Shown piece by piece: positions 3,604 to 23,704 of a DNA stretch of 39,041 nt. The DNA lies in the IMG/VR virus record IMGVR_UViG_2667527592_000008; one strand, 5' to 3'. The translations under genes were made by a program, and so were the position numbers. A model generated the notes under the pieces. It saw nothing but the letters and a program-made list of their open reading frames with translations. It had not been told where the DNA came from and ran no database searches. Numbering within the stretch: position 1 is the first letter of the stretch; each line of letters begins with the position of its first letter. Origin of the DNA: a virus. Lineage: Duplodnaviria > Heunggongvirae > Uroviricota > Caudoviricetes.

Positions 3604-3624
3604 TCAGGTGAGGGTGTTCAGCAC
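3604..3624. repeat. Copy 3 (partial) of a conserved palindromic element, core GAGGGTGTTCAGCAC
   Basis: Directly visible; shares 15-17 nt with the copies at 15515..15544 and 23675..23704. Lies in the 53-bp gap between the V-like and gp46-like genes. Confidence 0.6.
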
Positions 3625-4278
3625 TTAATTAACCGGCGTGTCAGACATGCCGTGTGGGGTTGGATGTTTGTGCGTTCCGATTTTAACGCCATTAATGGTG
3701 ACGTCAACGGAGGTAATCACTCCACCCACATGGTTGATATTGCCTTCAAAGGTGGCAGTGTATCCCTTGCCCCCACTGATGGCCATGCCACCGTTGCCGG
3801 TGATTTTGCCTTCCACCGTCAGCCTGTCACTGGCTGTCAGTAACGGTGTCGTGAATGTGGCGTTCTCCTCTGCCTCAACCTCGTAGCGTTTGCATTTCAC
3901 GCGATAAACGTCACATTCGGTTTCAATAACCCGTCCGCGCTTCAGTACGATTTTCGCGCCTTCATCGGTATACAGGGCCACTTCCCCGGGGTTCAGTTCC
4001 GTCAGACGATATGCGCCGTGCTCTGTGGCCACCACGACAGTATGGGAGGTATTGCCGTTCAGCGGAACGGCAATACCCATTGAGCCGGGCGGCGGGGATG
4101 TGGTGAGGCCGTAATGCTGAAAATACTCCGCACCGTCCAGCTGTTCGCCAGCCAGCCCGTTAAGCTGAAGCAGCTGTACTTTGGTCGAACTGTCCACCGT
4201 ACCGGTCACCACCCTGAATGCCTGGCGAACGGCGGCCAGTGCCTGCTGTACGCGTTGATTAACTTTGTCCCACATCAT
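3625..4278 (-). CDS. Baseplate spike/assembly protein V-like (Mu gp45-like)
   Basis: 217 aa ORF after the P-like gene; size and position match Mu gp45 (Phage_base_V family). Confidence 0.75.
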   Translation of the reverse strand: MMWDKVNQRVQQALAAVRQAFRVVTGTVDSSTKVQLLQLNGLAGEQLDGAEYFQHYGLTTSPPPGSMGIAVPLNGNTSHTVVVATEHGAYRLTELNPGEVALYTDEGAKIVLKRGRVIETECDVYRVKCKRYEVEAEENATFTTPLLTASDRLTVEGKITGNGGMAISGGKGYTATFEGNINHVGGVITSVDVTINGVKIGTHKHPTPHGMSDTPVN

Positions 4279-5486
4279 TTCTCCCAGACCTTAACAATGG
4301 CGACCTCTTTTTTCTTTTTGCCCCTGCGGTGATGGCGTTTCTTCTCGCGCGGGAAGGCATCAGGTATCCACACGCCGTCCTCCTTAAAGCGGAGCCGGGT
4401 TGTCTGCCCGTTCCGGCCTCCGCTGAACTCACGCCCCATCAGGAAAAAGATGGCATCAATGCCGTGGAGTTCGCTGACAATCCGCACCCGCTGGCCGGGC
4501 TGCCACAGAACACCATCTGCCGTGCGATGACCTGCAACCAGCGCGACGATATCCAGCCCCGACAGGCGGGCATCACTCATCATTTTTTTTGCGCGCCAGT
4601 TCACCTGCTCCAGATTGCTGGTGTCGCCCTGGGTGATTATCTGCGGGCGGTAATAATCCACAGTGGGGTCGGTGGCAACGGCTTTCATGTTATGAATGCC
4701 TGTCTGGCCACTGTCCGTATTACCGCTGTCCTGCCCGGACAATGTGCGCACGCTGCCGTCCTCGTTCCAGATATCCAGCGGCACCACGGCCACCTGTTTC
4801 TTGCTGTCTGCGCGGCGGGCGTGGCTCTGGGCCAGCACAGTAAGTTCGGAGAAACAGCCGTTAATGGACCGGGTATCGTCCAGCTCCATCACGTTGTTCC
4901 CGGTGCCGTTCAGCTTCAGAATCAGCGTATCCACCGGCGTGGTGGTGTAGTCAGGGCCACCCACAACCAGCGTCCCGTCAGGCTCAAACCACGGCCATAA
5001 GCCGCGACCGGCGGCAGCTTTGGCCAGTGCATCCCACGCACGCATCCCAGGCTCAATAACAACTTTGTCATTACGTGACACACCGGACGCCTGTATACGG
5101 ATGCGCTGTATCCCCAGTGGTCTGACTATCCTGTCGATGACCTCGTCCAGCGTCAGCTGATTGGCGCTGAACACCGGCGCGGCACAGTCCACCAGAATGG
5201 CAGCATCATCACGCCCGGACAGGGCCAGCGTGCAGCTCTGACGGGACACACTGCGGCGCACGCTGTCTATGCGCCCACTGAGCACCGTTTCGTCTCCCAC
5301 CTGCAACCGGATTTGTGCGCCCCGGACGATATCCGCCGGGAACACCTTTTCAGGCAGCCCCAGCTGAAGCTGCCAGCCGTCGGCAGCTTTCAGGAAATCG
5401 CTGTCAATACGATAACTGCTCCAGTCAGAATGCGACCTTCCGGCAATGACCAGGCTGATTTTGTCTTCGTTATTTGGCGTAGGCAT
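4275..5486 (-). CDS. Mu P-like tail protein (late control D / baseplate hub family)
   Basis: 403 aa ORF following the N-like gene with overlapping start; N-terminus MPTPNNEDKISLVIAGRSHSDWSSYRIDSD is typical of Mu P / gpD-like proteins. Confidence 0.8.
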   Translation of the reverse strand: MPTPNNEDKISLVIAGRSHSDWSSYRIDSDFLKAADGWQLQLGLPEKVFPADIVRGAQIRLQVGDETVLSGRIDSVRRSVSRQSCTLALSGRDDAAILVDCAAPVFSANQLTLDEVIDRIVRPLGIQRIRIQASGVSRNDKVVIEPGMRAWDALAKAAAGRGLWPWFEPDGTLVVGGPDYTTTPVDTLILKLNGTGNNVMELDDTRSINGCFSELTVLAQSHARRADSKKQVAVVPLDIWNEDGSVRTLSGQDSGNTDSGQTGIHNMKAVATDPTVDYYRPQIITQGDTSNLEQVNWRAKKMMSDARLSGLDIVALVAGHRTADGVLWQPGQRVRIVSELHGIDAIFFLMGREFSGGRNGQTTRLRFKEDGVWIPDAFPREKKRHHRRGKKKKEVAIVKVWEK

Positions 5487-6819
5487 TAATTACCACCCCG
5501 GCGGTTATGTTGTTCGGGTCACGTAACTGCGGGTTCAGGCGTTGCAGTTCTGCCGCACGACTGTAATCGCCGTACCACTGCCACGCCAGCAACAGCAGAC
5601 AGCTGTCCGCCTGCACCTGTTTCTGCGTCAGCGGTGGGCGGCGTGACAGAACCAGCAGGCCGACATCCTGCACGGTTGCCGCCACGTTTTTCATGCTCTG
5701 AATGATTTCCGGGTACATCAGCCCCAGCGGTGATGCGGTTTCGGTTATCCGTTCGCGTTCGCCTTCATAGCGTTCACGGAACAGCGTGATGGCAGCCTGT
5801 AAGCGGGTGCGCACATCCCCGACCAGTCGCCCGATATCCGCCGGTATAAGCTGTTCTGACTGCGCATCATCAACCAGTATCGCCATTGCAACACTGGCCA
5901 GTTCAGATGCGGCCTGTGTTGCGTAAACTGCTTTCACATCCTGCACATCGTCTGGCGAGGCATCCACAGGAAGTGCCACCTCCGCTACTTTATCGCCACT
6001 GACCAGGGTAACAGGCAACGCAACAAATTCATCCATATCAGTGATGACCTTATTCCAGCAGTTCATCACTGTCGCAGAACTGGCGACGGTCGTCTCTCCT
6101 GCCAACCCGGTCCGGGTGGCAGAATCAACACGTTGCAGAACCTGCACCGGTTGCCCGACATCTGATGTGTGGATTTCCAGCACCTCTGCCAGTTCATTGA
6201 TAAATTTTCCGGGTTCGCCTGCCAGTGACACGATATTATCGACAGTGGAGACAAAATCACTTTTGAACGACAGCAGGGTATTCACCAGTGTGGCACGCAC
6301 TGTCTGGGCTTTTTTAATCATGCTGTTAACGGTATTTAAAGGTGCAGTAACGGCATCAAAAAAATCACTTAACCGCGCCTGTAAAGTGTCCAGTTCATCA
6401 AACAACTGTTGCGCGAACAGCTCCGGTAACGGGGTGCTGAACAACGCGCTACCGGTGCGGTTTTCCAGAAAACTCATGTCAATGGTGCAGCTGTCCGGGC
6501 TTTCTGCGTCATGGCGGATGCTGTAGCCGGTCACAATCACCGACGGCACAGAGCCATAAACCGGATGAATCAGTTCACCATCGCCGCCTTCATCCAGGGC
6601 GGCGGTCAGTTTCCCGAGTTTATATTCATAGTCATCGCCCCACAGGAACGCCGTCATGCGGAACGGTCGCGCCTTGCGTCCGAGGTCGTGCAAATCCGCC
6701 CCGTCAACAAACGGGTATTCATAGACCGCATGGTCGCGGCTGATTTGTTCGTCAGTATTCAGCACCTCAAACTGCACGCCACGAAAGGAAGCGTTTTGCA
6801 GGTTTTCAGCCCAGCCCAT
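5470..6819 (-). CDS. DNA circularisation protein N-like (Mu gp43-like)
   Basis: 449 aa ORF directly after the tape measure gene; N-terminus MGWAENLQNASFRGVQFEV...YEYPFVDGADLHDLGRKARPFRMTAFLWGDDY resembles the DNA_circ_N family. Confidence 0.8.
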   Translation of the reverse strand: MGWAENLQNASFRGVQFEVLNTDEQISRDHAVYEYPFVDGADLHDLGRKARPFRMTAFLWGDDYEYKLGKLTAALDEGGDGELIHPVYGSVPSVIVTGYSIRHDAESPDSCTIDMSFLENRTGSALFSTPLPELFAQQLFDELDTLQARLSDFFDAVTAPLNTVNSMIKKAQTVRATLVNTLLSFKSDFVSTVDNIVSLAGEPGKFINELAEVLEIHTSDVGQPVQVLQRVDSATRTGLAGETTVASSATVMNCWNKVITDMDEFVALPVTLVSGDKVAEVALPVDASPDDVQDVKAVYATQAASELASVAMAILVDDAQSEQLIPADIGRLVGDVRTRLQAAITLFRERYEGERERITETASPLGLMYPEIIQSMKNVAATVQDVGLLVLSRRPPLTQKQVQADSCLLLLAWQWYGDYSRAAELQRLNPQLRDPNNITAGVVINAYAK

Positions 6820-23162: not shown

Positions 23163-23538
23163 CCCCTCCGCCGCGCAGTCTGGAAAACAGGCCGAACAGC
23201 GATGAAATTTCCTGTTGATAAAGAAAGGTCAGTATCTTGATGGATAACGCCGAGACACCGACCGCACACAATGCATCGAGTGGCTTGTCGTTGTAGTGGG
23301 TCAGCCACTGCATCAGTGACGCAGCCACGCCAGCCCCCAGAACGCCAACCACAAACGCGACGAGCAGGTGGATAGCCATTCGCCATACCGGGATTTCTTT
23401 CTGCTGCGTGACAACAAAAAGCGCTCCGGCAAACGCGCCCACCACAACCCCGAAATCGGTATTGGTGAGAAGGCCAAACACACTGGCACCACCGATGGTG
23501 ACTGCCACAGCTCCGCCGCCTGATAAGGGTTCAGACAT
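23146..23538 (-). CDS. Small membrane protein (holin candidate), first gene of the lysis block
   Basis: Start moved to the ATG preceded by AGGAGAAA (MSEPLSGGG...); glycine/alanine-rich hydrophobic segments and a glycine-rich C-terminus. The ORF track extends to 23598. Confidence 0.55.
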   Translation of the reverse strand: MSEPLSGGGAVAVTIGGASVFGLLTNTDFGVVVGAFAGALFVVTQQKEIPVWRMAIHLLVAFVVGVLGAGVAASLMQWLTHYNDKPLDALCAVGVSALSIKILTFLYQQEISSLFGLFSRLRGGGGGNGK

Positions 23539-23674
23539 GAGTTTCTCCTGTAAATCTGAGCCACTGACGGCCCGTAAATAACACCCGGTCAAAGGCACAG
23601 AATGACTTTTGCCGGGCGCTATCCCTTAAGGTGCCTTGTGGTCTGAGTGGACAGGGTAAACGGTATGCTGTGGT

Positions 23675-23704
23675 GGGTACTGCTGGGGGTGTTCAGCACC
23701 CCCG
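23675..23704. repeat. Copy 2 of conserved palindromic element GGGTACTGCTGGGGGTGTTCAGCACCCCCG
   Basis: Directly visible; 7-bp inverted repeat GGGGGTG-TTCAG-CACCCCC. About 140 bp upstream of the first lysis gene; near-identical to the copy at 15515..15544. Confidence 0.65.

Follow-up and report, generated by a model that had tools for sequence, protein, structure and literature searches.

What function is served by a short DNA element that recurs at three places in a Mu-like prophage, each time in the same orientation and each time ahead of late genes? The question arises from a 39,041-nucleotide (nt) stretch of DNA, IMG/VR record IMGVR_UViG_2667527592_000008, which was analysed as a whole and is called the window in the following. 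It represents a Mu-like prophage inside the Escherichia coli gene hyfB (hydrogenase 4 subunit B), and the minus strand is the coding strand of all its phage genes. An earlier note on this DNA had described a conserved palindromic element upstream of late gene blocks and had proposed that it either binds an activator at separate late promoters resembling those of phage Mu or forms a structure in a shared 5' leader RNA. Comparison of related prophages points with good confidence to the first of these proposals: the three elements are probably the upstream activator boxes of three late promoters, which belong to the Mor/C type of phage Mu but feature a new recognition sequence.

The repeat at three places was recovered, with previously given coordinates correct to within 1-2 nt. 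On the plus strand, GGGTGTTCAGCACCC is present as an exact copy at 15528-15542 and 23687-23701, and both copies are accompanied, at identical internal spacing, by a GGTACTG flank (15517-15523 and 23676-23682). A third copy of 15 nt, GAGGGTGTTCAGCAC at 3610-3624, corresponds to 15526-15540. Since all phage genes lie on the minus strand, the element has to be read on this strand, and in the direction of the genes it reads GTGCTGAACACCC... Chance is ruled out as the source of the copies: matches with up to three mismatches occur eight times in the window as compared to 1.2 expected, and eight were reached in none of 100 shuffled sequences. When scored with a position weight matrix (PWM) derived from 50 non-redundant related sites, the three copies attain 23-33 bits, as opposed to a mean maximum of 8.3 and a highest value of 18 bits in 50 shuffles. 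The copy with the highest score (33.2 bits) is the one ahead of gp46, which begins right after the TAA stop codon of gp45. The placement upstream of late gene blocks holds as well, inasmuch as the sites precede the lysis genes, the protease gene I and gp46, and are syntenic across ~100 related prophages of several genera.

For the comparison, 23 loci centred on the terminase gene were taken from bacterial genomes and 80 prophage contigs centred on the capsid gene from IMG/VR, the latter with 55-100% capsid identity; E. coli genomes alone are uninformative, being at least 92% identical in the gap between genes G and I. Within these ~1.5 Mb of related loci, the 21-mer matrix hit the gene strand 126 times and the opposite strand 12 times. 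A hexamer with A at its second and T at its sixth position (A2/T6) follows exactly 20 nt downstream in 84 of 94 unique gene-strand hits. All 84 of these hexamer-bearing sites are syntenic and occupy one of three places: between a Mor homologue and the lysis genes downstream of it, ahead of the protease gene, or between gp45 and gp46; the ten hits devoid of the hexamer are low-scoring and lie away from the three syntenic positions. Syntenic sites of the lysis class were found in Intestinirhabdus, Buttiauxella, Xenorhabdus, Photorhabdus, Morganella and Trabulsiella as well as in IMG/VR prophages. In the protease class, for which only ATG starts were taken into the search, the motif keeps the same distance from the ATG in 61 of 63 unique related upstream regions, and the gp46 position is occupied in 34 of 37 unique relatives. 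All three sites are present in Klebsiella phage ST405-OXA48phi1.1. Rather than lying at random positions or orientations in other genomes, the element keeps its three positions and its orientation throughout prophages that represent at least nine genera.

The combination of motif, 20-nt spacer and hexamer extends to prophages of Glaesserella, where one site directly follows the Mor homologue and another precedes the protease gene, and of Psychrobacter. In both, a leader of ~30 nt separates the promoter region from the ATG, and a GAGGA Shine-Dalgarno sequence can be read in the protease leader of Glaesserella. Since the spacing between motif and hexamer is kept despite this leader, the hexamer tracks the motif and not the start codon, which speaks in favour of a -10 element and against a signal for translation. 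The hexamers of the family have the appearance of typical weak -10 sequences (TATACT, TATTCT, TATCGT, TACACT, AATACT, CATACT), and in the lysis class A2 and T6 are invariant in 33 of 33 unique sites. A -35 element is missing: the sequence at -35 to -30 matches TTGACA in two of six positions by inspection, and a consensus sigma-70 scan of the G-I gap revealed no -35/-10 promoter. For the lysis promoter, transcription is predicted to start near 23646, leaving a leader of ~108 nt up to the holin ATG at 23538, which is preceded by an AGGAG Shine-Dalgarno sequence. Reading CTGAAC within the motif as a -35 or ECF (extracytoplasmic function)-type element was rejected on the grounds of wrong spacing, the conserved hexamer being 31 nt away and internal -10-like candidates 7-12 nt.

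In a set of 68 unique cores, CTGAAC.CC..C...G is the invariant portion of the motif, and the best centre of symmetry falls between positions 10 and 11 of the 21-mer; around it, T5 is complementary to A16 in 78% of cores, G6 to C15 in 100% and A7 to T14 in 85%. Hence, the conservation of the element stands but the palindrome as its unit does not: the conserved unit is an asymmetric 21-nt block with an imperfect TGA-N6-TCA dyad and a C-rich centre, whereas the palindrome originally described, GGGTG-CTGAA-CACCC with its centre at ~-48, has 71% of its cells paired in the E. coli lineage and 30-35% elsewhere. The centre of the dyad is 31 nt away from the hexamer, i.e. at ~-43.5, and the block spans -53 to -33, a numbering that assumes a start 7 nt after the hexamer.

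The arrangement of dyad and hexamer is identical to that of Mu Plys, PI and Pmom. The C site of Mu is a 16-bp imperfect dyad centred at -43.5 with a required region from -52 to -34, and C-dependent promoters possess -10 hexamers but are devoid of -35 elements (PMC2582627). Likewise, Mor binds the Pm promoter of Mu as a dimer, at a 16-bp element that contains two inverted repeats and has its centre at -43.5 (PMC4390567). In the sequences of Mu Plys, PI and Pmom, ATAA is followed after 24 nt by the hexamer, which places the centre of TTAT-N6-ATAA 31 nt from it, the same distance as in the window. Both systems share separate promoters for the late operons, the first of which comes right after the activator gene, a -10 without a -35, a conserved region of ~19-21 bp with a C-rich centre, and an activator of the Mor/C family. 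They differ in the dyad itself, here TGA-N6-TCA within (C/G)nRCTGAACcCCyTCAnCTG, and in the number of sites, namely three in the window and four in Mu. Moreover, the third promoter is situated here between gp45 and gp46, whereas these genes overlap in Mu and the PP promoter lies further upstream. The family matrix accordingly yields only 14-15-bit hits without a hexamer on Mu, whose promoters lack the motif, and conversely the window sites (CTGAAC.CC..C) do not show TTAT-N6-ATAA or one of its close variants, the C-box sequence that Mu, D108 and SfMu have in common. A search for further copies, for instance at a mom-like gene, had been proposed; scanning the window and the 0.8 kb up to the end of the prophage with the motif detected no fourth site, the next-best match having 8.8 bits and no -10 hexamer, and as far as the end of the prophage neither a mom-like nor a com gene was found. 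Four weak matches (5162-5176, 6432-6446, 32926-32940 and ~27851-27871) were discarded as chance occurrences: they lie within open reading frames, the first three are oriented opposite to the three sites, and the one that was checked lacks the hexamer.

Synteny, gene-strand orientation, fixed hexamer spacing, the missing -35, the Mu-like geometry and an adjoining Mor-family gene are the observations that favour activator sites of Mu-like separate late promoters. According to the model put forward here, the three promoters would split the morphogenetic half of the prophage into three operons, the first comprising lysis, terminase, portal and G genes, the second extending from protease and capsid through the tail to gp45, and the third consisting of gp46, the baseplate wedge and the tail fibres. 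As C and Mor do in Mu, the phage's single Mor/C-family protein, in the form of a dimer or a higher oligomer, would bind the 21-nt block, substitute for recognition of the -35 and recruit sigma-70 RNA polymerase after the early genes have been expressed.

The candidate for this protein is the 155-amino-acid (aa) product of the only Mor/C-family gene of the prophage. It is matched by the Pfam family PF08765 (Mor; 28.5 bits versus a cutoff of 24.9) and by PHROG 836, 'late transcriptional activator' (E = 3.5e-42), it has an FLGG..FYIP linker segment in common with Mu C, and it is 27% identical to Mu Mor over its C-terminal half. The gene order runs from gemA via a 112-aa protein of unknown function, the Mor-family gene and a 95-aa protein of unknown function (PHROG 7152, 23727-24014) to the first late promoter, and the first box lies 343 nt downstream of the end of the Mor-family gene. 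Homologues with 44-55% identity are encoded directly upstream of the first site in other genera. Over its length the protein aligns slightly better with Mor, and it also occupies the Mor-like place after gemA. In contrast to Mor, which drives only C as part of a three-tiered cascade, the single family member of this prophage appears to drive the late operons itself, and the presence of one Mor/C gene suggests a two-tier progression from early to late instead of the early, middle and late phases of Mu. That the 155-aa protein binds the boxes is inferred. A variant in which the boxes do serve late promoters but are bound by another protein, be it a host factor or a small phage protein such as the 95-aa product, takes its appeal from the two small proteins of unknown function on either side of the Mor-family gene. 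It is nevertheless unlikely, because no gene in the right place other than that of the Mor family can be recognised as coding for a transcription activator, the position of the dyad equals that of Mor and C, and in Xenorhabdus, Photorhabdus and Morganella the first site directly follows the Mor homologue with no small open reading frame in between.

The second and third promoters exhibit an additional peculiarity at the start of their genes. The distance from hexamer to ATG is 6-7 nt in 61 of 63 protease-class and 6 nt in 36 of 37 gp46-class unique relatives, and Shine-Dalgarno-like tetramers are found in 1 of 63 and 0 of 37 of them, respectively, in comparison with 39 of 51 genes of the window. 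On the basis of this spacing and of the missing Shine-Dalgarno sequences, the protease and gp46 transcripts are predicted to be leaderless, with the A of the ATG as their first nucleotide. Since the leader of Mu PI measures ~30 nt, as opposed to the 6-7 nt between hexamer and ATG here, the leaderless layout would be specific to the enterobacterial clade. Leaderless phage mRNAs have a precedent in the lambda cI mRNA transcribed from PRM, which likewise has its AUG at +1, ~7 nt after the -10, and no Shine-Dalgarno sequence. Unlike the cI case, the starts in the window are predicted ones, the promoters would be activator-dependent, and the genes concerned are structural late genes at the head of long operons.

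In the gp46 promoter, the -10 hexamer constitutes the apex of a 13-bp palindrome, the 3' arm of which consists of the discriminator and ATGG(AC). The corresponding RNA is predicted to fold with -23.8 kcal/mol (z = -6.4). Among 32 relatives, 90% of the cells are paired compared to 23-46% in slid controls; both sides change in 5 of 11 pairs, and the covariation score was reached by none of 500 shuffles. In one lineage that starts gp46 with GTG, the opposite triplet is CAC in place of CAT. As the arms differ among lineages and even among sites of one genome, pairing of the nucleic acid is favoured over a protein-binding site. In the protease class, the palindrome around the -10 is weak (59% paired, 35-47% in slid controls), and the window's own protease copy shows no significant palindrome or hairpin there. 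The gp46 hairpin would be present only in RNA that is read through from upstream, where it would hide the start codon, and one may speculate that it limits translation of gp46 to transcripts initiated at the promoter. Tentatively, the protease and gp46 operons might start leaderless from activator-dependent promoters while the covarying 11-13-bp hairpin of gp46 bars translation of read-through RNA, which Rho might terminate, thereby insulating the operon in the absence of an intrinsic terminator; we regard this extended scheme as possible but on balance doubtful.

The gp46 arrangement is also an argument for an entirely different role of the motif, namely that of an RNA operator for a Com-like translational activator, which would open a hairpin over the downstream start codon. 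In Mu, Com controls translation of mom via a Com site and a hairpin in the mom mRNA. The gp46 hairpin similarly sequesters a start codon that lacks a Shine-Dalgarno sequence, covaries, and has the conserved motif 9 nt to its 5' side. However, the hairpin differs from that of mom in that its apex is the promoter -10, the lysis and protease sites do not share the gp46-type arrangement, and no Com-like gene was identified in the prophage. Lysis-class sites have no start codon nearby, as illustrated by the long leader in the window, and the protease site of the window is without a significant hairpin. In addition, the motif keeps its distance to the hexamer and not to the ATG in Glaesserella and Psychrobacter, and the geometry of the dyad fits a DNA site of the Mor/C type. 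Taken together, an RNA operator is quite unlikely.

The same holds, somewhat more strongly, for an RNA stem-loop GGGUG-CUGAA-CACCC that would act within late transcripts as a shared 5' leader structure, an RNase processing site or a stabiliser. The lysis copy does fold as an interrupted hairpin of 11 pairs (7+4 bp) with -21 kcal/mol (z = -3.7). Moreover, there is no T-run after the stem on either strand and a terminator scan of the G-I gap found none at the element, which bears out the earlier assertion that it has no downstream U-tract and is not an intrinsic terminator. Read-through transcripts would include the element. On the other hand, the protease copy folds no better than shuffled sequences (z = -1.3), the gp46 copy lacks the 5' arm altogether (z = +0.3), and outside the E. 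coli lineage, at the low pairing given above, pairs are lost without being compensated. What is kept is primary sequence, orientation and the exact spacing to the hexamer. The element furthermore lies upstream of the predicted transcription start, and with the palindrome lost in other lineages and absent from the third copy, the shared 5' leader RNA of the original proposal is not supported; a role as stem-loop in any of these forms is very unlikely. Translation from a GTG within the motif (VLNT...) was rejected too: this small open reading frame stops after 6 codons in the third copy, and its frame is not kept in relatives. Finally, a chance or selfish repeat (REP-like or transposition-related) without a role in expression would suit a short, partly palindromic, intergenic element but is extremely improbable for one whose copies are far above those in shuffles and which is kept at the same positions and in the same orientation in at least nine genera. 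Neither the RNA stem-loop nor the Com-like operator, a different binding protein or a selfish repeat accounts for the fixed spacing between motif and hexamer in all three classes across genera.

Several points weigh against activator boxes of Mor/C-type late promoters. The literature searched offered no transcription-start, footprint or activator-dependence data for this phage, and nothing relevant came up in it on the motif strings or on Mu-like phages with leaderless late genes. As the boxes are unlike TTAT-N6-ATAA of Mu and the activator is no more than 27% identical to Mor, the analogy with Mu is one of architecture. Within the E. coli lineage, the GGGTG/CACCC palindrome, ~4.5 bp further upstream than the dyad, surpasses it in symmetry, which leaves the exact contacts in this lineage uncertain. 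TACCCT, CATCAT and CAGACT, the hexamers of the window, are poor -10 elements. As regards the gp46 class, A2 and T6 double as the closing pair of the palindrome and their invariance has a second possible cause, which is not the case in the lysis class and in most protease-class sites. With respect to the leaderless starts, the predicted +1 of gp46 carries ATG in the window and in 33 of 37 lineages but GTG in 4 of 37 and also in Klebsiella phage ST405-OXA48phi1.1; in E. coli, GUG serves poorly as the start codon of leaderless mRNAs.

If late promoters with Mor/C-type boxes are indeed encoded here, they provide a testable operator sequence and map the promoters of a family of Mu-like prophages that is very common in Enterobacterales, relatives of which also occur in Pasteurellaceae and Moraxellaceae. 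They would extend the Mor/C paradigm beyond Mu, in that the same -43.5 geometry is combined with another DNA specificity and one activator takes the place of two. Should the leaderless starts and the start-codon hairpin hold true as well, late structural operons would be headed and insulated in an unusual manner, and the promoters would constitute a natural set of activator-dependent leaderless promoters for the study of leaderless translation.

Table 1. Promoter elements and genes of the Mu-like prophage, with positions in the 39,041-nt window. Boxes and -10 hexamers are predictions.
Feature	Position	Strand	Sequence	Remarks
Transposase A/B	33733-30779	minus		
gemA	25339-24944	minus		
Only Mor/C-family gene of the prophage	24042..24509	minus		155 aa; candidate box binder
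Putative activator box, lysis-operon late promoter	23679..23699	minus	GTGCTGAACACCCCCAGCAGT	~-53..-33; PWM 23.1
Predicted -10, lysis promoter	23653..23658	minus	TACCCT	20 nt after the 21-mer
Holins and endolysin	23538-22331	minus		
Terminase, portal, F, G	down to 15696	minus		
Putative activator box, protease/head-tail operon promoter	15520..15540	minus	GTGCTGAACACCCTCCACAGT	PWM 24.9
Predicted -10, protease promoter	15494..15499	minus	CATCAT	ATG (15486-15484) 7 nt later; no Shine-Dalgarno
Protease I (Mu I-like)	from 15486	minus		followed by capsid, tail, baseplate
gp45 (baseplate V)	4275-3625	minus		
Putative activator box, gp46/baseplate-wedge/tail-fibre promoter	3604..3624	minus	GTGCTGAACACCCTCACCTGA	PWM 33.2
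13-bp palindrome	3566..3594	minus	GTCCATGCTGCCA-gac-TGGCGGCATGGAC	encloses the -10, pairs the gp46 start codon
Predicted -10, gp46 promoter	3578..3583	minus	CAGACT	ATG (3571-3569) 6 nt later
gp46	3571-3221	minus		followed by J, fibres

The surroundings of the sites display further features of their own. An additional CAGTACCC at ~-36 to -29 is shared by the lysis and protease sites of the E. coli lineage, though not by the gp46 site, and occupies a zone (CAGTACC on the gene strand) directly downstream of the dyad; activation in Mu depends to an important degree on the corresponding zone. The additional sequence forms a perfect 10-bp inverted repeat, GGTACTGCTG-N8-CAGCAGTACC, in one relative (L038). 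The lysis promoter of CCACTGAAC-type relatives (e.g. L046 244-330, L065 187-270, L107 9265-9350) features a perfect hairpin, gacaccatcc...ggatggtgtc, right after the -10. The lysis transcript of these relatives would begin with this stem-loop at its 5' end, whereas the lysis leader of the window has none. In the G-I intergenic region, an A+T-rich palindrome, ccgtttttaaaacccttttaaaaacg, followed by GTTTTATTT on the gene strand, is located at ~15575-15600; in Mu, the strong gyrase site is found at this place near the middle of the genome, likewise between G and I. The palindrome could also be a weak terminator of the first late operon. The 155-aa Mor-family protein ends with QVGLFD (24045-24062, minus strand), which resembles the beta-clamp-binding motif QL[SD]LF. 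MuC, with its C-terminal QPDLF, and other members of the family are reported to use clamp motifs, coupling late transcription to replication (PMC12867686, 2026).

As to the prophage as a whole, E. coli strain 2824 is 99.9% identical to the window, and related copies are present in ~55-110 of 5,426 complete E. coli genomes, including that of enteropathogenic E. coli (EPEC) E2348/69. A megablast/blastn search of deposited phages with the region gave no match; by capsid protein, the closest deposited phage is Klebsiella phage ST405-OXA48phi1.1 with 71% identity. The hyfB gene is split into two fragments that flank the prophage (window 35099 onward; L106 9222-9776), as is expected for Mu-type transposition. 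A DNA N6/N4 methyltransferase gene lies within the first late operon at 20638-21378. The right end of the prophage (L106 9777-10610), which has no intact invertase gene, comprises a truncated tail-fibre cassette opposite the fibre-assembly genes.

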